53,017 nt of DNA from an uncultured Candidatus Saccharibacteria bacterium (GCA_964584545.1 CAZPAG010000002.1:1-53017), one strand, 5' to 3'; numbered from the stretch's first letter, positions 3,769 to 49,888 are shown. Notes: generated by a model not told the origin, from the letters alone. Numbers and translations are program-made.

Positions 3769-4566
3769 TTATCTGAATTCGTAGGTAATGCTTACTGTTG
3801 CTTCTATTTTATTCTCTCCCGTCTGTATCTGAGGAACAGAATCTCCTCCTCCCATGCCGACTGCTTTTGCCGAATAAAGGGCCTCTGGATAATTATATGC
3901 TCCGCTTTCGCTGTAGCTCACTATTCTGACTATTTTTACCCCTAATTGCTTGGCCAATGCCTCAGCTTTAGCCTTTACCTTGTCAATTGCTTCTTCCCTG
4001 GCCTGACTCTTGAGGTCGTCTTCATTCTCAATTGTGAATTGCAAGTCTCCTACCTGATTCGCTCCGTTATCAGTAGCTCCCTGGATAATTTCTCCCACCT
4101 TTTCCAAATCCCTGATTTTAACTTGCAAAGACTGGGTTATTTGGTACCCCGTTAAAACCCTTTTACCGTCAGGACAAGGATAGTAGCCGCAGCTAACGGC
4201 GCTTTGATACTCATAAACCGGTGAGATATAAAAGTTAACCGTTTTCATGTCTTTATCCTCGACGCCGTTATCCCCAACCGATTTGATAATAGCGTTCATT
4301 TTTTCGGTATTGTCGCTCATGGCCTCTGCCACTGTTTTCTTTTCGCTTACCACAGAAAGAGTGGTTACGGCCAAATCAGGTTTTGAGTAGACTTCCCCCG
4401 TATCAGAAATGGTGAAAGCGTTCCTAATGTCCGAGGTTTCTCCTATATATCTGCTCTCCTTAATTTTGTTGAGGGTCAGCACTCCTATATATGCGGTTAA
4501 AACTATTAAAGGGATGGCAATTAGCCAACAACAGTATTTATTTTCCTTTAAACATTGAATATCCAT
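3769..4566 (-). CDS. SIMPL/DUF541-family secreted or membrane-anchored protein
   Basis: 265-aa ORF with an N-terminal TM helix. TGEVYSKPDLAVTTLSV...GYQITQSLQVKIRDLEKVGEII...QAREEAIDKVKAKAEALAKQLG is typical of the SIMPL domain. Confidence 0.7.
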   Translation of the reverse strand: MDIQCLKENKYCCWLIAIPLIVLTAYIGVLTLNKIKESRYIGETSDIRNAFTISDTGEVYSKPDLAVTTLSVVSEKKTVAEAMSDNTEKMNAIIKSVGDNGVEDKDMKTVNFYISPVYEYQSAVSCGYYPCPDGKRVLTGYQITQSLQVKIRDLEKVGEIIQGATDNGANQVGDLQFTIENEDDLKSQAREEAIDKVKAKAEALAKQLGVKIVRIVSYSESGAYNYPEALYSAKAVGMGGGDSVPQIQTGENKIEATVSITYEFR

Positions 4567-7391: not shown

Positions 7392-7940
7392 TTACTTTTT
7401 ATTCAACCTCTCCTCCAACTCTTGGACTCTCTTTTTAAGTTCAACCATTTTCAACTCTCTTCCTACGGCCAGTTTATTAATCTTCTCCAGCTCTTCATTC
7501 CTTTTTTTAAGCTCTCCCTCTAATTTATTACGCCCGGTAATGTCACGGGCTATACCCAAAACCACTTTCTTCCCCTGCATTGTTACAGGATAAGTGCTTA
7601 CCTCCAGCAAGATCTTAGTGCCGTCTTTACGGTTAAAAATTAACTCGTCAGGCCCTGTTGGCAGTCCAAGAACGTTTTTACCCAGCAGTACGGCTGCTTT
7701 AGACATTTGATTCGACGCCAACAAATTCAATTTTAAAAAACTTTTCCCGATCAGTTCTTCTTTTTTATAGCCGCTGAGCTTCTCAGCCGCCTTGTTGCCG
7801 TCAATAAAAACGCCTTTGGAGTCGCTCAAGTAATATGCGTCTGGTGCATACTCAAACAGTATCTTCATTCTTTCCTCAGATTCCTTCTCTGAAATATCGG
7901 GAATATTATTTTTCTTTATCTCTCCCATTTTTTTTGCCAT
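7392..7940 (-). CDS. PAS-domain protein with C-terminal coiled coil
   Basis: FEYAPDAYYLSDSKGVFIDGNKAAEKLSGYKKEELIGKSF...GIARDITGRNKLE is a PAS S-box pattern. Confidence 0.7.
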   Translation of the reverse strand: MAKKMGEIKKNNIPDISEKESEERMKILFEYAPDAYYLSDSKGVFIDGNKAAEKLSGYKKEELIGKSFLKLNLLASNQMSKAAVLLGKNVLGLPTGPDELIFNRKDGTKILLEVSTYPVTMQGKKVVLGIARDITGRNKLEGELKKRNEELEKINKLAVGRELKMVELKKRVQELEERLNKK

Positions 7941-8032
7941 ATTGATATATTTTACTCCTTAAACCGATTAAGAACAAGAAAAAGTCCCCGTTCAGACGCG
8001 GAGGCAATTTTTATTAGCAAACAAATCCTTGT

Positions 8033-8509
8033 TTAAATATTTAGTTGCCAGATTGAAAAGTTAAGCAGGGCCGCAAAAGTAACCCAGGTTAAATACGGTA
8101 AAAGCAAATAGGCCGCTGCCCTATCAATTTTACGAAACTGAAGGATGGTCAGCGCTATTGCAAGCCACAAAAATAATATATCCAAGAAAGCTAAAAACGG
8201 GCTGTGGAGGTAGAAAAACAGGAATGACCACTTTACATTCAAAAGAAGCTGGACGATAAAAATTAGCAGTCCTTTCTTCACCTCTCTGTCATTTAAGTCC
8301 TTTTTTAGAATCAGATAGAGAGATATCCCCATCAAAAAGAACAGGGTTATCCAAACAGGAGCGAATATCCAGTTTGGAGGGCTAAAAACAGGCTTTTGGA
8401 GGGTTGTATACCATCCGCGAATAGAAGGGGCGGTGAATACAGAGCCTAGAACCCCGGCTAACTGGCAAAAGATAACAGCGAATAGAAATTTAAAAATATT
8501 GTTTTTCAT
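8033..8509 (-). CDS. tspO: TspO/MBR family tryptophan-rich sensory protein
   Basis: WYTTLQKPVFSPPNWIFAPVWITLFFLMG plus five hydrophobic helices. Confidence 0.85.
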   Translation of the reverse strand: MKNNIFKFLFAVIFCQLAGVLGSVFTAPSIRGWYTTLQKPVFSPPNWIFAPVWITLFFLMGISLYLILKKDLNDREVKKGLLIFIVQLLLNVKWSFLFFYLHSPFLAFLDILFLWLAIALTILQFRKIDRAAAYLLLPYLTWVTFAALLNFSIWQLNI

Positions 8510-8527
8510 ATATTTTATTATATAAGA

Positions 8528-8749
8528 CTAATTAATTATTTCAAAAATCTTATTTCTCTCTTTAAACCCTTTTATGAGCCTGACTTTTCCCTCTGAAATC
8601 TTAAAAAAGTCAGAAAGCAGTTTAACTACCGCCCTGTTTGCCATACCCATTACGGGTTTCTCTCTGACATAAACCTCAAAGGAATCTTCTGACTTCTTAA
8701 CTAAATCATTCTCTTTTGAACAAGGGAAAGCCTTAACTTTTATCAGCAT
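8528..8749 (-). CDS. DUF167 (YggU-like) protein
   Basis: 73-aa ORF. VKAFPCSKENDL...VYVREKPVMGMANRAVVKLLSDFFKISEGKVRLIKGFKERNKIFEI matches the DUF167 pattern. Confidence 0.7.
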   Translation of the reverse strand: MLIKVKAFPCSKENDLVKKSEDSFEVYVREKPVMGMANRAVVKLLSDFFKISEGKVRLIKGFKERNKIFEIIN

Positions 8750-9128
8750 GTTTTTTAATTCTTCTTTGCTCTAATAATTTTGCCCCTTTCTCGTTAAAAC
8801 CGAAGTGATGGGCTATCTCGTGCCAGACGACATTTCTTACCAAATCCTTAATCTCTCCCTGTGATCTGGCGATACTTTCAATTGATTGCTGAAATATGGT
8901 GATTTTATCAGGCAAATTCCCGCCAAAGCCCTTGCCCCATCTCGTTTGAGGGACTCCCTCGTAAAGCCCCAATAAAACATCGTTATATCTTACCCCAACA
9001 CTTTTCAATTGCACTCTTGTGGGATTATCTTCAACAACAATAGCCACGTTTTCCATGATTTTACGTATTTTTTCAGGTAAATCCCGGATAGCCTCATCAA
9101 CTAGTTTTTCAAAACTTTCCAATTCCAT
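8733..9128 (-). CDS. zincin-like metallopeptidase family protein (DUF1025-like)
   Basis: HEXXH motif in VVWHEIAHHFGF. The start is moved to ATG 9128 (MELESFEKLV). The TTG-started extension in the ORF track translates a repeat element. Confidence 0.7.
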   Translation of the reverse strand: MELESFEKLVDEAIRDLPEKIRKIMENVAIVVEDNPTRVQLKSVGVRYNDVLLGLYEGVPQTRWGKGFGGNLPDKITIFQQSIESIARSQGEIKDLVRNVVWHEIAHHFGFNEKGAKLLEQRRIKKHADKS

Positions 9129-9143
9129 AAATTTAATAAAATT

Positions 9144-9171
9144 TACAGGGTCCCATCTCAATGGGAATCAT
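9144..9171 (-). repeat. family-1 element: GC hairpin plus GGGACCCTG box
   Basis: Minus sense reads ATGATTCCCAT-TGAG-ATGGGACCCTGTAAATTTTATTAAATTT-ATG. It is near-identical in layout to the copy at 45619-45643. Confidence 0.6.
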
Positions 9172-9260
9172 ACTTTGATTATATCATTTAAAAATGAATC
9201 TCCCACGGGCTTGCGCCGCGGTATCTCCTTTTCCCGCTCTCAACAAAATTAATAGTGAAA

Positions 9261-9300
9261 AAATAAAAAAGCACGGTGGAATCTAAATAAACAACCGTGC
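9261..9300 (-). terminator. intrinsic terminator after the 9283-9615 ORF
   Basis: Minus sense reads GCACGGT-16 nt-ACCGTGC followed by TTTTTTATTTTTT. The stop codon lies in the loop. Confidence 0.6.
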
Positions 9301-9615
9301 CGTGCCCTGAAGAGCTTTTTCTTTTTTACGGCGGGCGACTCTCCTGTCCTCAAAAGCCGACTCTGCCAATTGGCGATGTTTATTGTATTCTTCGTCAGGG
9401 ACCCGAAGACACTCTTGGGAATATAGCCGGGTTTTATTCACCAGCTTCCCTGCTGAGCATACGCCTTTGAGTGTATCTACCCAAGATAGTATATAGAAAC
9501 TTGATTCAGTCACTAAAATTCCTTCATTTTCCTCCGGGCTTTTAGTAATTTTTACGCACGATTCACTCTTTTCTTTTTCCGACCAGCCTAACAAAGCTAA
9601 TTGTCTTTCTTTCAT
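9283..9615 (-). CDS. hypothetical protein
   Basis: 110-aa ORF preceded by a near-consensus promoter and followed by a terminator. I recognise no motif. Confidence 0.45.
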   Translation of the reverse strand: MKERQLALLGWSEKEKSESCVKITKSPEENEGILVTESSFYILSWVDTLKGVCSAGKLVNKTRLYSQECLRVPDEEYNKHRQLAESAFEDRRVARRKKEKALQGTARLFI

Positions 9616-9674
9616 TATTATCGTCCTTATTATTCTATTTTTAATTTGAGATATTTCTATCTCGCAGTTTATTG

Positions 9675-9702
9675 ATTATAATAAATAAATACAAAAAGTC
9701 AA
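9675..9702 (-). promoter_or_regulatory. sigma70-type promoter candidate
   Basis: Minus sense reads TTGACT - 16 nt - TATAAT. Confidence 0.5.
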
Positions 9703-9706
9703 TAGT

Positions 9707-10840
9707 TCAAATTTTTCCCTCTTTAATTTTTTTACGTATATCCTCTATAAAAGCATTGAAGAAATATATATTGTGGAAGGTCAATAATTTTAAAGCTGTG
9801 ATTTCTTTGGCCCGAAAAAGATGAGAAATATATCCCCGGGTATAATTTTGGCAGACAAAGCAGGAACATTTTTTATCCAAAGGCTTTTTATCTTTCAAGA
9901 AGACGGATTTCTGCACATTTAACTCTCCGAAAGAAGTGAAAGAAATCCCCCTTCTTGCATAGTGAGTGGGAACTATGCAGTCAAAAGTATCCACCCCTCT
10001 TTTTATAATCTTTGGGATGTCTTCCAGATATCCTATCCCCAAAAGATGTCTTGGCTTTTCATCAGGTAATTCATTCATCACCCAAGTCAACATTTCCATC
10101 ATTTTATTCTTATTATCTCCGAATTCCCCACCGATACCGAATCCGTCAAAAGGCAGCTTAGCCGTAAATTTAGCGCTTTCAATCCTTAAATCCTTATATC
10201 TTCCGCCTTGGACAATTCCAAAAAGAGCTTGGTTTGATTTTTTCGAATCTAAACAAACCCCTGCCCACCTATTGGTTCTTGAAAGAGAATTTTTGGTATA
10301 TCCGTAATCAGCTGCCGGGGAAGTAGGCTCATCAAAAGAAAATATTATATCGGCTCCCAAGCTTTCCTGGATTTTGATGGATTCCTTGGGCCCCAAGAAT
10401 ATCTTCTGGCCGTCAATAAAAGATCTGAAATATACTCCGTCCGAAGCAATTTTTAAAAGTTTTGGCTGCTGTCCATCTTTAATATTGATATCAGATCTTT
10501 CTTTAAGAATTTTACCAATTCCTAAATCTTTGCCAAACCCTAAGCTAAAAACCTGAAAGCCTCCAGAGTCTGTCATTAAGGGCTTATCCCAATTCATAAA
10601 TTTATGGAGCCCTCCGGCTGATTTAATTATTTTCTCTCCTGGTTTTAAATGCAGATGAAAAGTATTGGCAATCAGTATTTGGCTTTTAGTGGCTTTTACC
10701 TCTTCTGAGTTAAGAGTTTTAATGACTGCCTGGGTGGCAACCGGAACCAAACAGGGAGTTTCAACAACGCCATGGCTAGTTTCTAACAGGCCCAGCCTCG
10801 CTTGGCTTATCTTTGACTTTTTAACTACTTTAAATCTCAT
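9707..10840 (-). CDS. tgt: queuine tRNA-ribosyltransferase (tRNA-guanine transglycosylase)
   Basis: TPCLVPVATQAVIKT, MTDSGGFQVFSL, LFGIVQGG, GFGIGGEFG, and the zinc site CSCFVCQNYTRGYISHL. Confidence 0.95.
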   Translation of the reverse strand: MRFKVVKKSKISQARLGLLETSHGVVETPCLVPVATQAVIKTLNSEEVKATKSQILIANTFHLHLKPGEKIIKSAGGLHKFMNWDKPLMTDSGGFQVFSLGFGKDLGIGKILKERSDINIKDGQQPKLLKIASDGVYFRSFIDGQKIFLGPKESIKIQESLGADIIFSFDEPTSPAADYGYTKNSLSRTNRWAGVCLDSKKSNQALFGIVQGGRYKDLRIESAKFTAKLPFDGFGIGGEFGDNKNKMMEMLTWVMNELPDEKPRHLLGIGYLEDIPKIIKRGVDTFDCIVPTHYARRGISFTSFGELNVQKSVFLKDKKPLDKKCSCFVCQNYTRGYISHLFRAKEITALKLLTFHNIYFFNAFIEDIRKKIKEGKI

Positions 10841-11117
10841 ATTTTATTTCAAAACTGCTGGATTCTCCCCTATCCTCTTCCCAGAAAACCTCGATATTAT
10901 TGACCTTGGCGAATATGGGGCCGTTCTTTGCCCAATTAGCCAGTTTTTGAACATTTTCTTTATCCCCTTCAGAAACTATCTCCACCCTGCCGTCAGCAAG
11001 GTTCTTCACCCAACCAAAAACGCCCAGTTTCTGGGCTTTTTTACAGGTGCTTTCCCGGAACCTGACTCCCTGGACTCTTCCCGATACGAAAATATGAGCT
11101 CTGGCTTTATTCTCCAT
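10830..11117 (-). CDS. acyP: acylphosphatase
   Basis: VSGRVQGVRFRESTCKKAQKLGVFGWVKNLADGRVEIVSEG. Confidence 0.9.
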   Translation of the reverse strand: MENKARAHIFVSGRVQGVRFRESTCKKAQKLGVFGWVKNLADGRVEIVSEGDKENVQKLANWAKNGPIFAKVNNIEVFWEEDRGESSSFEIKYEI

Positions 11118-11122
11118 CTGGA

Positions 11123-11215
11123 TTAACGCAAAAGAGTCGGTAAAACTTTTGTCACTGTGTAAAAAGCCGCAAAAAGCATAAATAAGATTACACAGATTAC
11201 TTCAAATTTAAGCAT
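11123..11215 (-). CDS. possible 30-aa hydrophobic micro-protein
   Basis: ATG 11215-11213 gives MLKFEVICVILFMLFAAFYTVTKVLPTLLR. It lies between tRNA-Val and acyP. There is no SD and the call is speculative. Confidence 0.25.
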   Translation of the reverse strand: MLKFEVICVILFMLFAAFYTVTKVLPTLLR

Positions 11216-11238
11216 ATTTTTATATGTAAGATTAACCT

Positions 11239-11311
11239 TGGGCAACACAGGATTCGAACCTGTAGCCTCATGCGTGTGATGCATGCGCTCTAACCATTGA
11301 GCTAGTTGCCC
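11239..11311 (-). tRNA. tRNA-Val (anticodon CAC)
   Basis: Hand-folded cloverleaf: acceptor GGGCAAC/GTTGCCC, D arm GCTC-AATGGTTA-GAGC, anticodon stem CATGC/GCATG with loop ATCACAC, T arm ACAGG-TTCGAAT-CCTGT. No CCA is encoded. Confidence 0.9.
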
Positions 11312-11705
11312 CCAAGCTATTTTCCATCTTATCATCTTCAAGAAAAAATAAAAAGAAGCGCACGAAGACGCTCCTATGCTGTGGTTATTTGCTCGCCCAA
11401 CAAGAACAACCTGCTTTTTTTCCATCTCTGCCCCCGGCAGAAACTATTTTTATTTCTCTGCATAAGGAGCAGTAAATGAGACAAAATTTCATGGGGGCAG
11501 AGTACCCCTCTGGCTGAAACCGCCCTATTGGAATACTTCCCCACTCTATAAATAATAAAAGCTTCTGCCACCATTTGATTTTGTCAAGGGTCTCTTTAAC
11601 TCCTGGCAATTTGGTCGGTATTTTTACCAATTCGTACCTCCGAAAGTTATCTTATGAATCGAGAGTATTTTACAACAAACGAAATAAAAAGTAAAATAAA
11701 CGAAC

Positions 11706-13703
11706 ATGCAGGTTTTCGAATTTCGTTTCAGTCCCAAAAAACAATCCGACTCGGTCTTCGACGGTTTTTGTTATACTCCAAAAACCGCTTACGAAAAAAG
11801 AGCAGGAAATTTATATATGGTCGGCGCCTTAAGAAACGCTTTACCTCAAAACGAGCGCCTGCTGGAAAAAACTGCCAGAGTCATAAAGGAAAAATATTAC
11901 CGCTCTTCCTCAAACAGTCCTGAAAAATCATTGAAAGATAGTTTAAAGGAAGCTAACATCTTTTTGCAGGGAGTGGGTAAAAAAGGAGACGTCAGCTGGT
12001 TGGGAAATTTGAGTTTTGCCACCCTTTCTCTTAAAAACTACGAATTAAATTTTACCAAGGTTAATGATATAAAAATCATCCTAATGAGACAGGGGCAGAT
12101 TATAGATATTGACCGAAAATTAAAATTTACCGATGTCAGTCCTTGGCCCTTAAAGGTTTTTGGCAATATCATTTCCGGGAAATTGGCAGAAAACGACGTA
12201 GTCATGGTTCTGAACGAAGAGGTTCTTGAGAAATTCAAATCAGAAAATTTGCTGAATATAATATCGAAGATCCGTCCATTCAACTGGAAAAACCTGAAAT
12301 CCGTTCTTGATAAAAAGAATGAAAGGCTTTTGAATATTTCAGGGATCTGTTTGATGATATTCCTAACCAAAGAAATCCTTTCAGGCAAAAAAGAGACCAT
12401 TTCTCCTAAAATACCGAAAAAGGAATTTAGTTTTAAAGAGGTTTTCAGCCCGATTACAGAACTGTTTAAAAAAATCTTTAAGAAACCGAAATTCTTGACT
12501 CCCGTAAAAAAAACGCGGACCAAACCGGCTAAATTTTCGAAAATAAAAGTCCGGACGCCAAAATTAAAATTTAGCAGAAACCTTGTTCTAGTTTCCATTT
12601 TCCTTTTATTCTTAATAGGAGGCTTTTCCGTTTTTGAAAAACAGCAGAAAAAGCAGATGGAGATATATAAGAGCGACCTGGAAAAGATAGAAGAGAACAT
12701 CTTGAAGGCAGAGAATTATCTGGTTTTAATAGAAACAAGGCCTCAGGCAGCCAGAAATGCCAATTTTCTGCTGAAAGAAAGTTGGGAAAAACTCTCCCCT
12801 TATTTGGAGATATTAGCCACTCTGCCAAAAAATATTGCCGACCAAGTCAATTCCATATATGATAAAATCTCTGAAGACTTCTCCAAACTTAATAACGTCA
12901 TAGAGATACCCGACCCTCAGCAAATTTTTGAATTCTCCGCCAAACCGGACGGAGAAACCCAGGGATTCATCGCCCAAAAAATAATCTTATCAGACGGCAA
13001 TCTATACTTTTACAGCCCTTACTCACAGAATTTATTTGAATTGAATCTTTCAAACAACGACAGCAAGGCATATACGGCTCCGATGGCCAAAGGAAATACG
13101 ATAAACTCAGCTGGTCTGCTGAACGGTTCAATAATTTTGTTCTCAAAATCAGAAAACTTAGTAACCTTCAAAGACGGGAAGTTCGGGGACGTAATAACTC
13201 TTAAAAATCCTTTCAGCGAATTCGGTTTCAGTAATTTTTTTCCGTATAAAGGAAATTTTTACTTCTTGGACAAAGCGACCGGGGAAATAATAAAATATCC
13301 TTACTTGGGCGGAATGAAATGGGGGCCTCCCGAAACCTGGCTGGCTGAAAACGCCAAAAAACCAATTGAAGGCCGGTCTATGGCAGTTGACGGGTCAATT
13401 TGGGTTATTAACAAAGACAGGTCTATCGCCCAATACTACTCCAAATATCTCCAAAAAACCCTGAATATAGACGTCTTCCCTGAGCCTACAGACCTATCCA
13501 AGATTATAACCTCTAACAACCTGTCTTATCTCTATTTACTGGAGCCTGCTCAAAAAAGAATAATTATCACCGATAAATTGGGATTGGTAATAAAACAGTA
13601 CAGGAGCGATAAGTTTGATAATCTTTTAGATTTCGCCGTTTCAAACAACGGAAAAGAAATATATTTACTCAACGGTCTGAGGGTATATAAGATAACTGAC
13701 TAA
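11706..13703 (+). CDS. hypothetical single-pass membrane protein (cytoplasmic N-domain, extracytoplasmic repeat/propeller-like C-domain)
   Basis: 665-aa ORF with a central TM helix LVLVSIFLLFLIGGFSVF. The N-terminal and C-terminal domains are not recognisable by eye. Confidence 0.6.
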   Translation: MQVFEFRFSPKKQSDSVFDGFCYTPKTAYEKRAGNLYMVGALRNALPQNERLLEKTARVIKEKYYRSSSNSPEKSLKDSLKEANIFLQGVGKKGDVSWLGNLSFATLSLKNYELNFTKVNDIKIILMRQGQIIDIDRKLKFTDVSPWPLKVFGNIISGKLAENDVVMVLNEEVLEKFKSENLLNIISKIRPFNWKNLKSVLDKKNERLLNISGICLMIFLTKEILSGKKETISPKIPKKEFSFKEVFSPITELFKKIFKKPKFLTPVKKTRTKPAKFSKIKVRTPKLKFSRNLVLVSIFLLFLIGGFSVFEKQQKKQMEIYKSDLEKIEENILKAENYLVLIETRPQAARNANFLLKESWEKLSPYLEILATLPKNIADQVNSIYDKISEDFSKLNNVIEIPDPQQIFEFSAKPDGETQGFIAQKIILSDGNLYFYSPYSQNLFELNLSNNDSKAYTAPMAKGNTINSAGLLNGSIILFSKSENLVTFKDGKFGDVITLKNPFSEFGFSNFFPYKGNFYFLDKATGEIIKYPYLGGMKWGPPETWLAENAKKPIEGRSMAVDGSIWVINKDRSIAQYYSKYLQKTLNIDVFPEPTDLSKIITSNNLSYLYLLEPAQKRIIITDKLGLVIKQYRSDKFDNLLDFAVSNNGKEIYLLNGLRVYKITD

Positions 13704-23577: not shown

Positions 23578-23650
23578 GCAAATGTAGTGAGCACCCCGCC
23601 CTCTAAGCATAAGTAAAATAATACATTTAGCATAGAGGGCGGGGTTTCGT
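23578..23650 (-). repeat. family-2 element, miniature (ORF-less) copy
   Basis: Minus sense reads cgaaACCCCGCCCTCTATGC-taaATGTATTATtttacttat-GCTTAGAGGGCGGGGTGCTCACTACATTTGC, then the ATG of trmD. Confidence 0.8.
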
Positions 23651-23712: not shown

Positions 23713-24027
23713 TTACAGTTTTAACTCTTCGAGATCTTCTCCTTGAGAAACTCTTGCTCTCGGGGCTCTTCCGCCTTCCGGCTCTTCGATCTTCAAATTC
23801 ACGCGAGCGTGATTCTTAAGACCGACGATTCTGACCAAAGATCTTATAGATCTGGCAGTAGAACCGGCTTTGCCGATAATCTGACCCATGTCTTCTGGGT
23901 TTACTTTCAGAGAAAGCAATACTCCCATTTCATCAACCTTGCGGTCGATTTTGACATCTTCAGGATGATCGACAAGAGCTTTTATGATAAACTCAAGGAA
24001 ATCTTGATCGCTGGATGCTTTTGACAT
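23713..24027 (-). CDS. KH-domain RNA-binding protein (YlqC/UPF0109-like)
   Basis: DFLEFIIKALVDHPEDVKI...GQIIGKAGSTARSIRSLV (GxxG KH motif). Confidence 0.85.
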   Translation of the reverse strand: MSKASSDQDFLEFIIKALVDHPEDVKIDRKVDEMGVLLSLKVNPEDMGQIIGKAGSTARSIRSLVRIVGLKNHARVNLKIEEPEGGRAPRARVSQGEDLEELKL

Positions 24028-24131
24028 ATTCTTTCAGTATATATTCATTTCTAGTAGCCCGACCTTTCAGCGACTCTCTCAAACAATAATCAATAATGCG
24101 GGAGAATCTGATAAAGTTGCTACTAATTAAT

Positions 24132-24159
24132 ATTCTATTAATTATTGGGTCTTTGTCAA
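24132..24159 (-). promoter_or_regulatory. sigma70-type promoter candidate for the KH-protein gene
   Basis: Minus sense reads TTGACA - 16 nt - TAGAAT. It is preceded by a long imperfect hairpin at 24164-24225 (CCCAATAAG/CTTATTGGG outer stem, CAAGGAAAAC/GTTTCCTTG inner stem). Confidence 0.45.
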
Positions 24160-24269
24160 GCTGCCCAATAAGCTGCCAAGGAAACAAGGAGAGAGATTTA
24201 TGTTTTCCTTGACAACTTATTGGGTAGGAACGAGGGATCATTAAGTCATAGACTCTCCCCCTCGCTCCT

Positions 24270-24470
24270 TTACTTTTCAGTAAGCTTTTCAAAAGCTTCT
24301 CTGAATACGGACTCATACCAAGGGCGGTAACAAACCAGTATCTGGTCTTCGCCAAGCACTAATTTTGTTGGCTTTACGCCAAGCTCTTTTTCGACTGCGT
24401 CGATGGCTTGGTTCATTTTATCGAAATCCGCCCTTTCTAAAGTAATTACCGCATCTGGTTGGATTCCCAT
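24270..24470 (-). CDS. hypothetical 66-aa protein (island gene)
   Basis: AGGAGG lies 7 nt upstream of the ATG. MGIQPDAVITLERADFDKMNQAIDAVEKELG.... I recognise no family. Confidence 0.55.
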   Translation of the reverse strand: MGIQPDAVITLERADFDKMNQAIDAVEKELGVKPTKLVLGEDQILVCYRPWYESVFREAFEKLTEK

Positions 24471-24630
24471 CCGTTTGCCTCCTTTGGATTCATTCTTTTC
24501 ATGACGCCGAACTGGCTATAATTTATTTGATTAACACTAATACGTCTAATCTACATAAAATAAATGTTTAATTATAACCACTTCGTCGCCATGAAATCCC
24601 ATATTTAATTTTTAAAATTATTAAGTAGAT

Positions 24631-24651
24631 TGTTGAGGCCAGGCCTCAACA
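24631..24651. repeat. island hairpin H1 (TGTTGAGG...CCTCAACA)
   Basis: tgttgaggcc-a-ggcctcaaca. It belongs to the same family as H2 at 25528-25550. Confidence 0.6.
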
Positions 24652-24690
24652 GATCCTCAAAGAATTCTCAAAGAGCCAATTATCCATTTA

Positions 24691-24771
24691 TTAGCTAATA
24701 ACTTTTTTACAAACTAGTAAATGGAAGGTAAGTAAAAATATAATGATACGATCGTTAATTATTGCAATCAT
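24691..24771 (-). CDS. possible 26-aa hydrophobic peptide
   Basis: MIAIINDRIIIFLLTFHLLVCKKVIS. The start codon lies inside the 44-nt loop of a perfect 9-bp stem GAAGGTAAG/CTTACCTTC (24724-24732 / 24776-24784). The call is speculative. Confidence 0.25.
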   Translation of the reverse strand: MIAIINDRIIIFLLTFHLLVCKKVIS

Positions 24772-24801
24772 ATCTCTTACCTTCTTTGAAAGTCTCTATG
24801 C

Positions 24802-24987
24802 CTAGGCCCAGATTAAGGTTTTGACCTGCTTGAGATGCTCGACTGCTTGGTCGAATTGTCCGAGCCGAAAATGATGCCGAGCTTTCTTAAACTCGTCTGA
24901 CAGATAAAAATTTAACTTTTCATCTGCTTTTTCGATCTCTTTTTGAAAAAAATCTTCCAATTTTCTTTCCCTCTCTTCGGTCTTCAT
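24802..24987 (-). CDS. hypothetical 61-aa helical protein (single TPR-like hairpin?)
   Basis: AAGGAGG lies 4 nt upstream of the ATG. ...FKKARHHFRLGQFDQAVEHLKQV. Confidence 0.55.
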   Translation of the reverse strand: MKTEERERKLEDFFQKEIEKADEKLNFYLSDEFKKARHHFRLGQFDQAVEHLKQVKTLIWA

Positions 24988-25002
24988 GATACCTCCTTAA
25001 TT

Positions 25003-25088
25003 TACTCGCTTTTCATAGCGGCGAGATGCCCTCCTGCTGTAGAATGCTACCGAAGGACATTTCGCCGTTATGAAAACTATGAAAAGAA
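25003..25088 (-). repeat. 86-nt structured leader R1
   Basis: 84/86 identical to R2. Minus sense has a 10-bp stem CTTTTCATAG/CTATGAAAAG, an inner stem CGGCGA/TCGCCG and an apical hairpin GTAG-CATT-CTAC. It ends 8 nt before the SD. Confidence 0.8.
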
Positions 25089-25151
25089 TTTCTTTCTACT
25101 TCCACAAATTTCATCCTGAGCTTGTCGAATGGATAAAACCTCTGGAAGTAT

Positions 25152-25173
25152 GGGAAGTCGAAACCGACTTCCC
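25152..25173 (-). terminator. hairpin after the zinc-ribbon gene
   Basis: GGGAAGTCG-GTTT-CGACTTCCC (9 bp). No clear U-run follows. Confidence 0.4.
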
Positions 25174-25193
25174 CTCGAGTAGTGAGGAGGTGG

Positions 25194-25391
25194 CTACTGT
25201 TCAGGGCAACCCTGCCGATTACCGCAGTTACCGCAGAACTTGGCACCGATAGGGATTTCTACCCTACAGGCCTCGCATTCCTTGGTGCCGTACAACGGCT
25301 TTCCACATGTTCGACACGTAACCCTATTCTCGTGGTTAAAAGTCCCGCAGGCGACGCATTGGACAAACTTATCTGGCTTAATTTCAGGCAT
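25194..25391 (-). CDS. double zinc-ribbon protein (65 aa)
   Basis: Four CxxC pairs: CVAC..CRTC..CEAC..CGNC. AAGGAGG lies 8 nt upstream of ATG 25391. Confidence 0.65.
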   Translation of the reverse strand: MPEIKPDKFVQCVACGTFNHENRVTCRTCGKPLYGTKECEACRVEIPIGAKFCGNCGNRQGCPEQ

Positions 25392-25411
25392 GAACAATGC
25401 CTCCTTGCTAA

Positions 25412-25497
25412 TACTCGCTTTTCATAGCGGCGAGATGCCCTCCTGATGTAGAATACTACCGAAGGACATTTCGCCGTTATGAAAACTATGAAAAGAA
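25412..25497 (-). repeat. 86-nt structured leader R2
   Basis: See R1. The two differences fall in the apical loop and in an unpaired segment. Confidence 0.8.
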
Positions 25498-25527
25498 CTT
25501 TTTTACGCCTTAATTTATAAATATAGC

Positions 25528-25550
25528 TTGTTGAGGTCAATCCTCAACAA
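25528..25550. repeat. island hairpin H2
   Basis: TTGTTGAGG-tcaat-CCTCAACAA. Confidence 0.6.
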
Positions 25551-25687
25551 ATCTACAACGAATCTATTACTCTTATAAACTAAGGAGTAAAGGAGATGGA
25601 TGAATGCGTAGATTTTATTTCCACCCATCTCCTATAATGGACGAGATTTTTATAGCGGTGCTCATCCCACCGCTTCTCCCGAGGGTT

Positions 25688-25816
25688 TTAATTATCTTCT
25701 GGAGATTTTTTCCCCGCATCTTCTGCTGACTGACATACGGTGCCAGTTACCCCAGGGCAGAAGACCGGATTGGATCTTCGCCAGAAAACTGGCAGAACCT
25801 CTTTAAAATTTTCCAT
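25688..25816 (-). CDS. hypothetical 42-aa Cys-containing peptide
   Basis: GAGGAGG lies 8 nt upstream of ATG 25816. MENFKEVLPVFWRRSNPVFCPGVTGTVCQSAEDAGKKSPEDN. The longer ORF-track start is rejected. Confidence 0.45.
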   Translation of the reverse strand: MENFKEVLPVFWRRSNPVFCPGVTGTVCQSAEDAGKKSPEDN

Positions 25817-25991
25817 CTTATTTACCTCCTCAGAGACGATAGCACTCTCTGGTCTCTGAGAAGGTAAAATATTACTTAAAGAACTTTTTGAATTTCCCAT
25901 CTTTCAGCTCACAATCTCTTATGAGCTGGAATATAGGGGGAAGAGTCAAACTTCTCCCCGTTATGCTCCCGGTTTTACCCGGGAACCTGAT

Positions 25992-26099
25992 TTAGATGAT
26001 AGTGATGATACCCATCACGATAAGCATTGACGCAGTGAACATGATTCCAGTGACTGCCAGTCCAAACGCGCAGAATCCCGTGATAAGATTGTTTTTCAT
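25992..26099 (-). CDS. possible 35-aa hydrophobic membrane peptide
   Basis: MKNNLITGFCAFGLAVTGIMFTASMLIVMGIITII. GGGAG lies 4 nt upstream of the ATG. It sits at the end of a roughly 145-nt structured leader from a near-consensus promoter. Confidence 0.4.
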   Translation of the reverse strand: MKNNLITGFCAFGLAVTGIMFTASMLIVMGIITII

Positions 26100-26140
26100 T
26101 AAACTCCCTCTTTTTAATAAAATGTGCTTATATAAAGCCG

Positions 26141-26169
26141 AAAAGGCAACTCCCTTGGAGAGAGTTGCC
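26141..26169 (-). terminator. attenuator-like terminator hairpin inside the leader
   Basis: Minus sense reads GGCAACTCTC-TCCAA-GGGAGTTGCC followed by TTTTCGGCTTT. Confidence 0.5.
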
Positions 26170-26187
26170 TAACGGCATATATTTCTT

Positions 26188-26231
26188 GAAAATATCGATA
26201 TCTTCTCTCCTGTTAAAATATCGACATTTTC
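26188..26231. promoter_or_regulatory. two 18-bp near-palindromic operator-like sites
   Basis: GAAAATATCGATATCTTC (26188-26205) and TAAAATATCGACATTTTC (26214-26231). They share 15/18 positions, their centres are 26 bp apart, and they lie downstream of the -10 element. Confidence 0.5.
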
Positions 26232-26251
26232 TCTCTCTCCTCTATGCCCGT

Positions 26252-26279
26252 ATTATAGCATATATCAAAGATTTGTCAA
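26252..26279 (-). promoter_or_regulatory. near-consensus sigma70 promoter with extended -10
   Basis: Minus sense reads TTGACA - 16 nt (ending in TGC) - TATAAT. Confidence 0.6.
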
Positions 26280-26292
26280 GTATTTAGAACAT

Positions 26293-26323
26293 AAAAACGA
26301 AATCCCGCGGTTTTAGCGCGAAA
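26293..26323 (-). terminator. terminator candidate after rpsP
   Basis: Minus sense reads TTTCGCG-CTAAAAC-CGCGGGA, then TTTCGTTTTT. Confidence 0.45.
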
Positions 26324-26348
26324 TCCATAAAACGAGATCTAATTTGGC

Positions 26349-26777
26349 CTATTTCGGTTCTTCAGCCTTAACCTCTTCGCTTTTTACCTCCTCTGCCGGC
26401 TTTGCTTCCTCGGGAGTCGCTTCAATTTTTACCTCTTCTTCCGGTTTTTCCTCTACAGGCTTAGCTGCCACCGGAGCTGCTTCAACCGGCTTTGCTTCTG
26501 CTTTCTTCTTTGATTTCTTTTGTTTTGGTATCTTTTTCCCCTCAACTATTTTCTCTGAAACCAATAAATTAAAAACCGTGGGAGAAGGTTTAGCTCCAAC
26601 TGACATCCAGTATTTAATTCTGTCCTGCTTCAAAACCTTTTCTTTTGTGGTGGGATTCCAAAAACCAACCTCTTCCGTAAAGCGGCCCGCTCTTGTCGGA
26701 TTTCTTTTATCAGCAACAACTATTTTGAAAGAAGGCTGATTTGTTTTACCTACGCGAAAAAATCTGATTACTAACAT
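26349..26777 (-). CDS. rpsP: ribosomal protein S16 with Lys/Glu/Ala/Pro-rich C-terminal tail
   Basis: MLVIRFFRVGKTNQPSFKIVVADKRNPTRAGRFTEEVGFWNP. Confidence 0.95.
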   Translation of the reverse strand: MLVIRFFRVGKTNQPSFKIVVADKRNPTRAGRFTEEVGFWNPTTKEKVLKQDRIKYWMSVGAKPSPTVFNLLVSEKIVEGKKIPKQKKSKKKAEAKPVEAAPVAAKPVEEKPEEEVKIEATPEEAKPAEEVKSEEVKAEEPK

Positions 26778-27050
26778 GCGAATGTAATGAGCACCCCGCC
26801 CTCTAAGCTATAATTCTTTTCTTGAGGGCACGCCAGGCGCTCCCATAATATTTTAATTTTCTTTCTCTCGACCTTGCTAATTTCTCTAAGGAATAAGATT
26901 CGTAATAAACTATTTGAAATTTATTCTTAGATTTATGTTGTTTTATTCTTTTTACTAAGTCTTTGGTGCATCCAATATAAAATTCATTATTCCTTTCCAG
27001 TTTTAAAATGTAGACATAATACATAGCTGCATAGAGGGCGGGGGTTTTCG
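26778..27050 (-). mobile_element. family-2 element, full-length copy: GIY-YIG ORF framed by inverted repeats
   Basis: Arms gcaccccgccctctaagc (26791-26808) and gcatagagggcggggg (27029-44). The same flanks occur in the 73-nt copy at 23578-23650. Confidence 0.7.
26803..27024 (-). CDS. GIY-YIG nuclease family protein (73 aa)
   Basis: MYYVYILKLERNNEFYIGCTKDLVKRIKQH...RERKLK carries the GIY / YIG / R..H / E pattern. The start is moved to ATG 27024. The TAG stop lies inside the inverted repeat. Confidence 0.8.
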   Translation of the reverse strand: MYYVYILKLERNNEFYIGCTKDLVKRIKQHKSKNKFQIVYYESYSLEKLARSRERKLKYYGSAWRALKKRIIA

Positions 27051-27067
27051 CCTGTCGGCTCAAAATT

Positions 27068-28626: not shown

Positions 28627-28965
28627 TCAGCCAAGCCCCCTCAAAACGTTGATGACAATATATATCAAAGCCTTGGCTAAAAACACCGCGGCTAATCCTA
28701 CTAAAGTATAAATAATTATCTTTTTTCCTGTTTCGGCCTGCTCCGGATTCTGACCGGCGGCAGCTAAAACAACAGCCCCTATTACTATCAAAAGAGGACC
28801 TATGCCCAGAGAGATATAGAAAATAAAGCTTACTATCTTGTCTATGGCAGTTTTCAGAATATCCGAATTCAAAGGATTGTTGAAAGTTATTTCAAAAGCA
28901 GAAACAAAAATAGGCAAAATCAGCGATACAAAAATTAAAACGAATAAAATCTTTTTCATAAACAT
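28627..28965 (-). CDS. hypothetical membrane protein (signal peptide plus two TM helices; pilin/VirB2-like topology)
   Basis: 112-aa ORF. MFMKKILFVLIFVSLILPIFVSA, then two long hydrophobic helices. Confidence 0.5.
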   Translation of the reverse strand: MFMKKILFVLIFVSLILPIFVSAFEITFNNPLNSDILKTAIDKIVSFIFYISLGIGPLLIVIGAVVLAAAGQNPEQAETGKKIIIYTLVGLAAVFLAKALIYIVINVLRGLG

Positions 28966-46607: not shown

Positions 46608-49600
46608 TCAAATATCTAAATTTTTGGCCTTCTTGGCGTAAGTCTGGATAAACTTCTTTCTGGGAAAAACCTCGTCTCCCATCAGAACATCAAATATCCT
46701 GTCAGCTTCCTTGGCGTTATCAATATTAACCTGCAACAAAATCCTATTCTGGGGATTCATTGTCGTATCCCATAGTTGTTCCGGATTCATCTCTCCCAAA
46801 CCTTTATACCTCTGTATGGAGGTCCCGAAAGACCTTTTCATGGACTTTAAAACCGAATCTTTCTGATCTTCGGTGTAAGCGTATTTGATCTCTTTCCCCG
46901 ACTGTATTCTGTATAAAGGAGGCTGGGCAATATATAAACAACCCGCTTCAATAATGGGCTGGAAATAGCGATAAAACAGAGTTAATAGCAATGTCCTGAT
47001 GTGGTTCCCGTCGCTGTCTGCATCAGACATTATGACTATGCGATGATACCTTAGCTTGTCCAAATTGAAATCGCTGGCCACAGCCGTTCCCAAAGCAATA
47101 ATCAAAGATTTAATTTCTTTTGAAGCAAGCATTTTATCCAAGCGTGCCCGCTCAACATTCAATATCTTTCCCCTCAAAGGCAGTATAGCCTGGAATCTCC
47201 TGTCGCGCGCTCCTTTCGCGCTATTATGCACAAACACGCCTGCCGCTAAGGCAAAATTATGCGTCCCTTCAACCTCAATATCGTAAACATCAGCTCTCTT
47301 TTTTAATCTTACTATCTTCTTTATTTTATGGTTATAATTTGAGACGGCCTGTTCTAATTCTTCTTTACTGCCATTGAAAAAACGCTGACTAATGGTACTA
47401 TATCTCAAAACACTTTTATCTTTTGAGGTCATTCTCTCTTGATTATATTCCCCCTCATCCACTCTACCGTAGCTGTCGAAAATCTTCTTCATTAATTTTA
47501 AAGCCTTTTCCTTATACGTTTGATTGTATGTTGCTTTTCTTTCTTCCCTAAATGCCCGAGTCCACTGCTCTCTGGTTTTTTGGCTTCTCCACGCTAGCAA
47601 TTCTTGGTTCTTCCATTCGAGTTTTGCCTTCAAAGCCAATTTCTCTTTTGCTTCCGGATGTTCTCTAAAGTAATTTCGGGCCCTTTCTGCTTGTTTATTC
47701 CTGTTTGCCCCATCAGACCAATATTTCTTCTGATTTTCGTATAAAATTTTAATATTTTTCTCGCGATAATCCTTATTCTTCCGATAAAACTCAAAGAATT
47801 TCTGAGTCATATATTCCTTATATTCTTTATTCTCCCATTGCTTCTTCGCTCTTTCGCTTAGCATTTTCCGCATTTCTGGTTTCAGCATGGAATTTCTAAT
47901 TTTTTCTCTAAATTCCTTGGATTGTCTTATTTTTCTTAACTTCTCCTTTATCTCCGGCCTAGACATAAGTTGGCTTATCAACCTGCTATGCAATTTTCTA
48001 TGCTCTTTGGAATCCATCCTTATTATATTGTCAGGATGGTTATTAAGCTTATTTAGATCAGAATGGTGAATCGCCTGCCCCTCTTTTTTCGCATATTTTC
48101 TTTTCTCAATATTATATCCGTCCGCTAAAAGATGACTAAATATATATTGATATTTTTTAGGGTCAAACACCATTTCATATCCTTTAATTGTGATTCCTCC
48201 GCCTATTTCTGAAAATTTACGATATAACGGATTCAAAGAATCTTTAACTGTTAATTCCTCAGCCGCCTTATAATCTCCGCTTCGTAACATAAACTTGTGG
48301 TCCGGAGTGCAGAGTATTTCCTTTCTATTGTCAAGAATAATTTTAATTACTTCTGTTTTTCTCTTGGTCAGTCGTGGACTCCTAATATGTCCTATTCCAA
48401 TAAAACCATCCTCTTTGATGGTATAGCAATAATTTTTCTTACCTATTTTATCCTCCTCTATCAACTCTCTGAAAGTCAAATTCCTCCCGTCTATTAAAGC
48501 GACTTCCGTATCTCCGGTAAAACAGCCTCCGGCCGATTCTCCCTCCACAATATATAATTCTGATTCTTCCGGTTTATTCGAAGAGCAGTCTGCCAGTTTG
48601 CCCGGCAAAGCTAATCCATCCAATATCCCCTTTCTTAAAACGGTTTCTCTGGCTGATTTGGCAGCCACTCTCGCTTTCTGAGAAATAATACATTTTTCAA
48701 TAATGGCTTTCGCGTCCTGAGGGTTCCTTTCCAAAAAGTCTGCCAAAGCCTCTGAGACAACCGCTTCCACCGCAGGCTTAGCTTCCTGGTTACCCAGCTT
48801 TGCCTTTGTCTGCCCCTCAAACTGAGGTTCCCGTATTTTCACAGACACTACCGAGGTTAAGCCTTCCCTGATATCCTCTCCGCTCAAGTTTTCATCGTTT
48901 CCCCTTATATATCCGTTCTTCTTTGCAAAATCGTTAAATGTTCTTGTTAAAGCCGTCCTGAACCCTGTCAAATGGGTTCCTCCTTCCCCGGTATATATAT
49001 TATTGGCGAAACTCTCTTCATAACACTCGTACTCCTCGGTGTATTGAAAAGCTCCTTCAACCAAAATCCCGTCCTTTTCCGCAGTTCCATAAAAAACATT
49101 GGGATGTCTGGGGGCTGACCCGCGAGTCAGATATTTAACGTAGGAGTTGATCCCTCCTTCGAAATAAAAGGAGTAGGATTTAGTCGCTTTCTCGGTCTGA
49201 TCAATAATAGTTATTCTTGTTCCTTTTGTAAGATAGGCCTGCTGGCGAAGATGATTCAAAACCTTTTTTAAATCAAATCTGATTTCCTTGAAAATTTCCG
49301 TATCTGGCTCAAAAATAATGGTGGTTCCCGTTTTCTTACACTTTCCGTCTTTCTTTACTTTGGTTTTAGGCTTCCCTTTTGAATATTCCTGGGTATATAA
49401 AAATCCGTCCCGGCACACTTCAGCTTTCATCCAGATGGACAAAGCGCAAACCACAGAAACTCCTACCCCGTGAAGACCTCCCGAAACCTTATAGGCTTCC
49501 CCTCCGAACTTTCCTCCGGCATGCAGGGTAGTTAATACCGTTTCCAAGGCTGACTTTTTGGTTTGTTTATGAATATCCACCGGGATTCCTCTACCGTCAT

Positions 49601-49841: not shown

Positions 49842-49888
49842 AATTTGTAAAATTTTTGTAAGCGTATTTTTATTTATCAATAAAAATT

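Follow-up and report, generated by a model that had tools for sequence, protein, structure and literature searches.

A candidate hypervariable cassette region with structured leader RNAs between rpsP and khpA of an uncultured Candidatus Saccharibacteria bacterium

Promoter/stem-loop (PeSL) elements are mobile regulatory cassettes in the hyperplastic regions of T4-type phages, in which orphan genes are shuffled as modules by way of the conserved promoter/stem-loop motifs on either side of them (Arbiol et al. 2010, PMC2839356; Comeau et al. 2014, PMC4122927). The attC sites of integrons present conserved extrahelical bases in a folded bottom strand, together with an unpaired central spacer and a variable terminal structure (PMC2727003). 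Here a locus that invites comparison with both is described in a stretch of 53,017 nucleotides from an uncultured Candidatus Saccharibacteria bacterium (GCA_964584545.1 CAZPAG010000002.1:1-53017), referred to below as the window. A 2.3-kb insert of small genes, the island (24028-26348, minus strand), separates rpsP from khpA; its coordinates follow window numbering and it is read in the minus sense. The observed architecture, the distribution, orientation and position of the leaders, their strand-specific folding, the turnover of cassettes and the breaks of homology at modules point to the island being, on balance, an instance of a hypervariable ("hyperplastic") cassette region, in which conserved regulatory RNA modules probably double as recombination junctions.

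The island carries three copies of a leader RNA, the only copies in the window. Leaders R2 (25398-25504) and R1 (24989-25095), both of type A and on the minus strand, stand before open reading frames (ORFs) of 65 and 61 codons and share a 93-nt direct repeat of 96% identity (25412-25504 and 25003-25095). In R2 a AGUUCUUU box is followed by the invariant basal stem P1 (25423-25481), by P2 with an internal AGGAGGG, by a downstream GCGAGUA box and then by a Shine-Dalgarno (SD) sequence; its fold z is -3.6 and a covariance model scores it at 50.3 bits on the minus strand. The corresponding values of R1, with P1 at 25014-25072, are -4.0 and 50.8 bits. Both had been recognized in a preliminary description of the window, which missed a third member of the family (24500-24593) before the 66-aa ORF. 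This leader, R3 (type B, 24473-24622, minus strand), has P1 arms at 24582-24593 and 24500-24511 that close a 67-nt AU-rich branched apical domain and precede an SD; its sense strand folds at -31.9 kcal/mol versus -17.9 for the antisense strand.

The scaffold of R1, R2 and R3 recurs in sister strains and in other species. Scanning metagenomic data with a two-arm pattern gave 81 stretches, about 65 of them genuine leaders and about 15 chance matches in GC-rich coding DNA. A first, loose arm-pairing scan was dropped as too noisy, and a covariance model of the trimmed stem, which recovers R1 and R2 but misses the long type B R3, was set aside for this census. In 33 leader contigs that also hold rpsP, khpA or their neighbors, the leader lies between or beside those genes except in L141 and L152. 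The leaders are always in the sense of the genes and 5' of SD-led ORFs of unrelated sequence. Elsewhere, leaders were seen upstream of rnhB (L141, 5679-6138), before a HicB-like/HicA pair (L144, 8349-9172), adjoining dnaE/thrS (L156, 8514-8985), near dnaJ in a GC-richer genome (L160, 4954-6680) and after rpsB-tsf (L166, 7065-7445).

The leader is built on a basal stem, UCAUrGCGGCGAArUG...CAkCUCGCCGCUAUG, of 11-12 invariant base pairs with a fixed A·C mismatch, whose arms are CAUrGCGGCGAA and UUCGCCGCUAUG and which has a AGUUCUUU(n)AAAA box on its 5' side. A second stem continues the basal stem in register and covaries, and above it sits an exchangeable apical domain of about 20 to more than 130 nt. 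At least four types of this domain occur (A, B, C, D), type A being a short hairpin with the internal AGGAGGG and type B an AU-rich branched structure with invariant GAUUAGAC/GUGUUAAUC. Most copies carry (C)AUAGCG(A/G), a copy of the 5' arm, downstream of the stem. The SD follows the leader stem by about 15-30 nt, and the distance from P1 to the start codon is about 15-35 nt in simple leaders and longer in those with extra modules. A conserved upstream ORF, opening with the AUG that the basal stem carries in its 3' arm, was considered and rejected, as its length and frame vary.

Among 50 distinct leaders, pairing in the 23-bp in-register helix amounts to 92.8%, compared with 81% in column shuffles, none of 500 of which reached the observed value, and it drops to 31-55% once the partner is displaced by one, two or three columns. 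The helix has 24 positions in register without bulges, interrupted by a 1x1 or 2x2 internal loop with a central A·C/R·K mismatch. Double-sided changes occur at ten pairs (eight of the nine apical pairs and two in the basal stem), while basal columns 1-3, 7 and 9-11 hardly vary, if at all. Folding is stronger in the sense than in the antisense strand for 56 of 63 leaders (mean -6.6 kcal/mol), so that a function in the transcript is favored. Leader conservation is strict across species whose KhpA proteins are merely 70-88% identical. These leaders make up a structured RNA family that is new and widespread, its stem invariant and its heads interchangeable.

The genes behind these leaders differ from the surrounding core genes in how their start sites are marked. 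Five credible small ORFs, of 35, 42, 65, 61 and 66 aa, lie in the island, each with an AGGAGG-type SD, and their anti-SD duplex energies range from -8.5 to -12.9 kcal/mol, whereas nearly all core genes of the window are weaker than -6. The preliminary claim of a strong SD on every island ORF and none on core genes holds for these five; it fails for a 26-aa ORF without an SD, and two core genes, dnaE and a GIY-YIG gene, do carry one. The contrast extends across species: in an unbiased set drawn from the islands of many species, ORFs of 50 aa or more, taken from the first ATG, have a median SD duplex of -8.6 kcal/mol, with 46% at or below -9, against a median of -1.0 and 0.5% reaching -9 among 206 rpsP, khpA and rnc starts (Mann-Whitney p = 2.5e-23). 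This suggests that initiation in the lineage is largely SD-independent, core genes having essentially no SD. Strong-SD island genes beside SD-less core genes thus offer a natural system for the coexistence of SD-dependent and SD-independent initiation.

The closest relatives of the window's KhpA are found in Candidatus Nealsonbacteria and other Parcubacteria metagenome-assembled genomes (86-88% identity). In 74 related loci with both genes, the rpsP-khpA gap forms a continuum from 150 nt to 5.6 kb, measured between residue 80, where the conserved S16 domain ends, and the start of khpA and hence including the variable S16 C-terminal tail. The two genes are adjacent in about half of these loci, gaps below about 500 nt being counted as adjacency to allow for that tail. 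The comparison reveals an insertion polymorphism in an otherwise contiguous rpsP-khpA-trmD operon, and the island is not an ordinary clade-wide gene set, since its genes differ among strains. Judging from the loci compared, the rpsP-khpA site is a fixed, lineage-wide hot spot of Nealsonbacteria-like Parcubacteria and not a single insertion; what had been taken for a one-off module is one instance of a widespread modular cassette hot spot.

Turnover is evident even between the closest relatives. L003 and L004, whose KhpA is 100% identical to that of the window, have different island genes, encoding a 50-aa zinc ribbon, a 77-aa double zinc ribbon, an 89-aa membrane protein and a 64-aa homologue of the 66-aa protein. 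Where KhpA is at least 90% identical, the island ORFs are of 39, 37, 88, 83, 43 and 68 aa (L012) or of 34, 78, 53, 59, 117 and 79 aa (L015/L016). Overall, clustering of the 158 SD-led ORFs from the islands gave 127 clusters, of which 103 have a single member. Type A leaders precede the double zinc ribbon and the 61-aa family, and type B leaders the 66-aa family and the 89-aa and 79-aa proteins. Between the window and L004, khpA has a dS of 0.12 whereas the 66-aa gene has a pS of 0.93 (synonymous saturation), which argues that alleles were exchanged and did not diverge in place. Cassettes are not just micro-proteins, as two alpha/beta-hydrolase genes lie in a 5.6-kb island (L022, 4243-5700).

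The breaks between related islands fall at the conserved modules. The zinc-ribbon cassette of the window is flanked by the direct copies R2 and R1; in L015 a single type A leader stands directly before the 61-aa homologue and the zinc-ribbon gene is absent, which is the arrangement that recombination between two leaders would be expected to leave. L015 also has an extra 78-aa cassette inserted at the AGTTCTTT box. Over 2.1 kb, ending at the SD that follows a type B leader, L102 and L050 share 94% identity; the ORFs that come next (64 versus 174 aa) are unrelated, homology returns with the following CTGAAAG module, and further on one leader-led cassette again sets the two apart.

In the favored explanation, the island would begin with a promoter after the rpsP terminator, followed by an operator and attenuator and then by a string of small, mostly orphan, SD-dependent genes. 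With moderate confidence, the polycistronic mRNA is inferred to be the level at which the leaders work. Their regular helix of about 23 bp, which has a small internal loop, would most likely be a double-strand-specific (RNase III-type) processing and stabilizing site. Cleavage would free the 3' arm to re-pair with the downstream 5'-arm copy, (C)AUAGCG(A/G), and each cistron would gain a protective 5'-terminal hairpin and an open SD. Read as a processing site, the leader would be expected to tolerate any apical domain. Since the same modules flank unrelated genes, homologous recombination between these modules of about 100 nt would add, delete and swap cassettes, like the PeSL modules of T4-type phages.

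Several points weigh against this explanation. Transcription, processing and translation of the island are all predicted from sequence. Conservation of the basal stem and of the type B loop exceeds what RNase III-type cleavage or plain homology would need, which hints at a specific partner. Covariation within type B is weak, most pairs being invariant because the sequence is so conserved, and cannot prove the branched apical fold; the structure is supported by comparison between types, by fold energies and by strand asymmetry, and the sequences are phylogenetically related. Homology breaks at modules are also expected if the modules are merely under stronger constraint than the genes. Many islands of related species lack this leader, at least by regular expression, and leaders also occur outside the rpsP-khpA site in L141, L144, L156, L160 and L166. 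A bolder extension, tentative and more probably wrong than right, is that one hairpin would serve both as the gate of SD-dependent translation in an otherwise SD-independent cell and as the cassette recombination site. This would amount to a new gene-cassette system of the candidate phyla radiation (CPR), an integron analogue assembled from different parts, and to a hot spot stockpiling orphan small-protein genes.

At the RNA level, the main alternative to a processing site is a riboswitch-like or protein-binding sensor, in which the apical types would be distinct ligand or protein domains on a shared switching basal stem, and the 3' arm would alternate with the downstream (C)AUAGCG hairpin to control the adjacent SD-led ORF. 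The leader does resemble a riboswitch in being a structured domain of the 5' untranslated region (5'-UTR) on a basal helix whose 3' strand has an alternative downstream partner. It lies immediately 5' of the SD, the two pairings are mutually exclusive in most leaders, in type B the apical domain forms a three-way junction whose loops hold invariant nucleotides, an anti-SD-like UCCUUC is paired to the internal AGGAGGG in type A, and a separate SD-sequestering hairpin with a conserved loop is present. However, the alternative hairpin neither occludes the SD nor forms a terminator, and the same leader type precedes unrelated genes, so that the gene-function association typical of riboswitches is missing. 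The invariant part is the basal helix and not the sensor domain, and an invariant basal stem across "aptamer" classes is unlike known riboswitches; Rfam gives no match. A sensor switch is therefore considered unlikely, and the processing site is preferred.

The island ORFs are all on the minus strand. The first, a 35-aa hydrophobic peptide (25992-26099; SD GAGGGAG), has positional homologues of 34-39 aa in L015 and L012, all hydrophobic, with a dN/dS of 0.53. The 42-aa ORF (25688-25816; SD duplex -12.9 kcal/mol), with a C-terminal SPEDN motif, has a 53-aa homologue in L015 (dN/dS 0.24); a zinc-ribbon peptide takes the corresponding position in L004 and L012, preceded in L004 by the same loop hairpin. 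The 65-aa ORF (25194-25391) encodes a double zinc-ribbon protein (Pfam DZR, 2e-8), and related zinc-ribbon ORFs stand behind the same leader type in L004 and L012. The 61-aa protein (24802-24987) is modeled by AlphaFold 2 (AF2) as a hairpin of two helices (pLDDT 91) and has homologues in L015 and L164 (dN/dS 0.23-0.35). The 66-aa orphan protein (24270-24470) has an AF2 model of a generic beta-alpha-beta-beta-alpha fold (pLDDT 73), for which Foldseek returned no PDB neighbor with E < 0.1. A word-indexed homologue search with this protein returned only itself, and an exhaustive HMMER search found three small homologues among 1.84 billion representatives (family dN/dS 0.40).

The preliminary description had listed the 35-, 65-, 61- and 66-aa ORFs and the zinc ribbon correctly. 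Its 42-aa "Cys peptide" is a genuine ORF, but the Cys character is not sustained, there being two Cys only and neither conserved. Its possible 26-aa hydrophobic ORF is not coding: no SD precedes it, and L015 has lost the start codon and acquired a 10-nt indel although the DNA is conserved, so that this segment (24691-24771, minus strand) is better regarded as a conserved non-coding stretch. By their dN/dS values of 0.23-0.53, the families tested (61, 66, 42 and 35 aa) are under purifying selection, in keeping with the micro-ORFs being coding, as first proposed.

Selection on these families argues against the view that the island is non-functional clutter, that is, MITE-like palindromic repeats (of the miniature inverted-repeat transposable element kind) and chance ORFs in a tolerant intergenic region. 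A different small inverted-repeat element does lie nearby, most island ORFs are singletons, and the 26-aa ORF proved spurious. Nevertheless, clutter would not be expected to show systematic strong SDs at a defined distance from leaders, a fixed leader orientation and strict leader conservation across species with KhpA of 70-88% identity, or to be confined to three copies in 53 kb, all inside the island. Hardly any credence is left to this view.

The island matches no catalogued system in Pfam, PHROGs, PADLOC or Rfam, in agreement with the preliminary description. With Rfam 15, tRNAs alone reached the gathering threshold in the window, the best island matches scoring 18-26 bits against gathering scores of 43-95; ten other islands gave no island match at gathering or E-value thresholds, the one L10 leader found lying outside them. 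Pfam recognized the zinc ribbon and sub-threshold TPR matches and nothing else among the island ORFs, PHROGs gave no credible match for any of them, and PADLOC returned a single weak match, of the 61-aa ORF to the CARF_HEPN model (E 5e-4). No toxin, antitoxin or bacteriocin family was found for the island ORFs in Pfam, PHROGs or PADLOC, and no gene pair is conserved across strains. Phage records showed no DNA similarity to the island by blastn, and the same two-arm leader pattern found no match in IMG/VR. No Phage_integrase-type Pfam match was obtained among the scanned window ORFs of at least 150 aa, several of which have no Pfam match at all, and a scan of 10 ORFs from other loci, of which nine belong to the islands of L015, L022 and L079, found no recombinase. 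In a limited literature search, neither a prior description of integrons or hypervariable cassette regions in Patescibacteria/Parcubacteria nor a comparable system in cellular genomes was found.

These searches bear directly on the likeness first suggested, that of a module of toxin-antitoxin, bacteriocin/immunity or phage origin that entered the operon in a single insertion. It had been prompted by hydrophobic peptides of small size and by operator palindromes, a HicA/HicB-like pair does stand behind a leader of the same family in another organism (L144), and strong SDs in an SD-poor genome suggest a foreign origin. Yet none of the ORFs has a credible match, the CARF_HEPN hit being weak and Pfam giving the zinc ribbon and sub-threshold TPR hits alone, there is neither phage DNA similarity nor an IMG/VR leader match, and an integrase was not found among the ORFs scanned. 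Gene content differs in every strain, so that no fixed two-gene logic is kept, and the hot spot is lineage-wide. This origin is accordingly judged very improbable, and the likeness finds no support for this island.

The flanking genes and predicted signals define the island as a putative separate transcription unit that starts with a promoter after the rpsP terminator and ends just before the khpA promoter. On the minus strand the gene order is rnhB, a pilin-like gene, rpmF, nusB, rnc, a small GIY-YIG gene and rpsP, then the island, khpA, trmD and tRNA genes. The upstream boundary is rpsP (26349-26777, minus; Pfam Ribosomal_S16, 1.5e-19), an S16 gene with a Lys/Glu/Pro-rich tail, and the downstream boundary is khpA (23713-24027, minus; KH_KhpA-B, 6.7e-21), encoding a KH-domain RNA-binding protein. 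Directly 3' of rpsP lies a terminator-like hairpin with a 10-bp stem and the tail CGTTTTTATG (26300-26326, minus), followed by a predicted island promoter (26252-26279, minus) that matches the consensus at 12 of 12 positions, TTGACA and a TG-extended TATAAT separated by a 16-nt spacer. A consensus promoter occupies the same place after rpsP in most island-bearing relatives mapped.

Repeat search and folding identified two 16-bp palindromes of the AAAATATCGATATTTT type, 26 bp apart (26189-26235, minus), which may form a DNA operator pair or, as RNA, a 17-bp hairpin; in L015 they are nearly identical, with two changes, both outside the palindrome cores. Between promoter and first ORF, a 12-bp GC-rich hairpin (26144-26170) followed by UUUUCGGC resembles an intrinsic terminator and may act as an attenuator (26137-26170, minus), and the 141-nt leader 5' of the first island ORF has a fold z of -6.1. 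At the other end, an inverted repeat with 24-nt arms (24161-24227) abuts the near-consensus khpA promoter, TTGACA-16-TAGAAT (24132-24159). This conserved 3' flank (24132-24227, minus) is 91-96% conserved among strains and also found at the island end in relatives, most mapped islands sharing the layout with the promoter first and the khpA promoter last. Inside the island canonical promoters are mostly absent, H2 alone having a weak 9/12 promoter-like site. GC content reaches 0.46-0.50 at 24950-25400 versus about 0.36-0.44 in the flanks. In all these respects, namely the split operon, the promoter with twin operators and attenuator, the new KH-gene promoter and the GC-richer parts, the preliminary description was accurate.

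Further modules lie between the genes. Hairpin H2 (25524-25563, minus; z = -4.2) has a terminator-like stem overlapped by the weak promoter-like site, and H1 (24626-24665, minus) repeats it with 80% identity, both as first reported. Repeat, folding and comparative data define an SD-sequestering hairpin 5' of the 42-aa ORF with a conserved 14-nt loop, CAGnGAGUGCUAUC (25821-25868, minus). The CAGnGAGUGCUAUC hairpin recurs in L004 (1-60), L015 (about 4020-4075), L022 (about 2880-2935) and L164 (about 1315-1370), and its stem covaries under the constant loop (CAGAGAC/GUCUCUG, CGUAAGC/GCUUACG, CGUUAGC/GCUGACG); it is a second conserved leader type, standing before different small peptides, some of them zinc ribbons. 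An intergenic module read from the sequence (25877-25985, minus) consists of three short hairpins followed by CUGAAAGAUGGGAA and a AGUUCUUU box. Cassette junctions of other species carry the CTGAAAG and AGTTCTTT motifs again; a sigma-70 promoter within the AGTTCTTT box was rejected for want of a consistent -35/-10 pair. Other species have additional recurrent structured modules between leader and SD, GACACUCUCACCGAAAGGGAGAGAAACAG..., AAUAGUGGUCCGAGUCAGCGGUUCAAGGGGAUCUUGGAGACUGGCA and UGAAGGAGCAUAGGGCAAAAAG...GGGGGAUUCUCCAACCUCC, none of them in Rfam (L099, L101, L104, L117, L122, L142, L143, L160 and others).

Several neighboring features were observed in passing. A 12-nt inverted repeat, ACCCCGCCCTCT / AGAGGGCGGGGT, brackets the 86-aa GIY-YIG ORF between rnc and rpsP (26793-27063); this ORF has weak homing-endonuclease-like matches in PHROGs and PADLOC, and the gene is absent in L012, L015 and L016. 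Directly upstream of trmD (23593-23645) the repeat pair occurs once more, without a gene and with the 5' end of trmD duplicated; this copy is absent in L004. The two copies give rpsP and trmD the same 5' leader, AGAGGGCGGGGUGCUCAyUACAUUyGC-AUG. From its sequence, the repeat unit looks like a small mobile GIY-YIG element and the trmD copy like its solo remnant. In L015 the region downstream of trmD (7824-12243), which contains a PDDEXK nuclease, Phage_rep_O and a second KH-domain gene absent from the window, is another variable region with phage- or plasmid-like genes. A 112-aa T4SS-pilin-like membrane protein (28627-28965) is encoded between rnhB and rpmF in the same operon, and the 1090-aa GyrB (46608-49880) carries an intein (Pfam Intein_splicing, 5e-19) between its GyrB and Toprim domains.

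Bacteria of the CPR, or Patescibacteria, have tiny genomes, for which streamlining and synteny are generally assumed. A conserved hot spot at which strains differ in their orphan small-protein genes, even where the flanking proteins are identical, would rank among the chief sources of strain-level diversity and could bear on host interaction or phage defense, and genome plasticity by "mobile regulatory cassettes" would extend from T4-type phages to cellular genomes.

Among known systems, RNase III hairpins sit between the cistrons of phage T7 early mRNA and in the rnc leader, and their cleavage products carry stabilizing terminal hairpins. The leaders resemble them by analogy in their position between cistrons of a presumed polycistronic transcript, with an apical part free to vary, and in offering about two turns of double-stranded RNA with a small internal loop, the 23-bp in-register helix agreeing with the about 20-22 bp of largely regular duplex, an internal loop being optional, expected of such sites. 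They differ in a basal-stem sequence far more conserved than substrates require and in the conserved branched apical domain of type B.

The R''/R' core of attC sites has the consensus RYYYAAC / GTTRRRY, and a comparison with integrons or CALIN elements (clusters of attC sites lacking integrases) raises the possibility that the leader hairpins are attC-analogue single-stranded DNA sites, at which an unlinked site-specific recombinase would capture and excise promoterless cassettes expressed from the post-rpsP promoter. The likeness lies in co-oriented, promoterless orphan cassettes behind one strong promoter, in high strain turnover, in a zinc-ribbon cassette between direct repeats of the site, and in a third copy of a 7-nt core, CATAGCG, after the sites in most copies. 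The repeats are imperfect palindromes whose base is conserved, whose center holds a mismatch and whose terminal structure varies, like the R/L boxes, unpaired spacer and terminal structure of attC (PMC2727003). However, the AAC/GTT triplet is not conserved here, occurring only sporadically, the stem is in register without extrahelical bases, and the mRNA-sense strand folds better whereas attC uses the bottom strand. The spacing of the inverted 7-mer varies from 4 to more than 15 nt; a tyrosine-recombinase core site, CGCTATG-spacer-CATAGCG, was considered and rejected, as so variable a spacer is what the loop of an RNA, but not a crossover region, would allow. The sites precede the SD by a short, constant distance and are carried by some cassettes only, the L102/L050 break falls after the SD and not within the stem, and neither IntI nor any tyrosine recombinase was found in the scanned window ORFs of at least 150 aa or in the 10 ORFs from other loci. 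Integron-like capture is therefore regarded as improbable, and recombination between RNA-encoding modules remains the favored account.

The PeSL cassettes of T4-type phages, in contrast, resemble the island in that small genes, orphans for the most part, cluster between conserved core genes, differ from one close relative to the next and are flanked by short conserved stem-loop regulatory motifs. Insertions, deletions and replacements are likewise bounded by the motif, as with the zinc ribbon between R2 and R1, the L102/L050 replacement and the L015 insertion at the AGTTCTTT box. The differences lie in the host, here a cellular CPR chromosome with the island inside a ribosome-biogenesis operon, and in the motif: that of PeSL is a strong sigma-70 early promoter with a terminator stem-loop, whereas here it is a long 5'-UTR hairpin beside the SD, with no canonical promoter found at the leaders in a promoter scan of the window. 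In conclusion, on the best reading of these comparisons, the island is neither an integron nor a toxin-antitoxin system, and its closest known analogue is the PeSL cassettes of T4-type phages.

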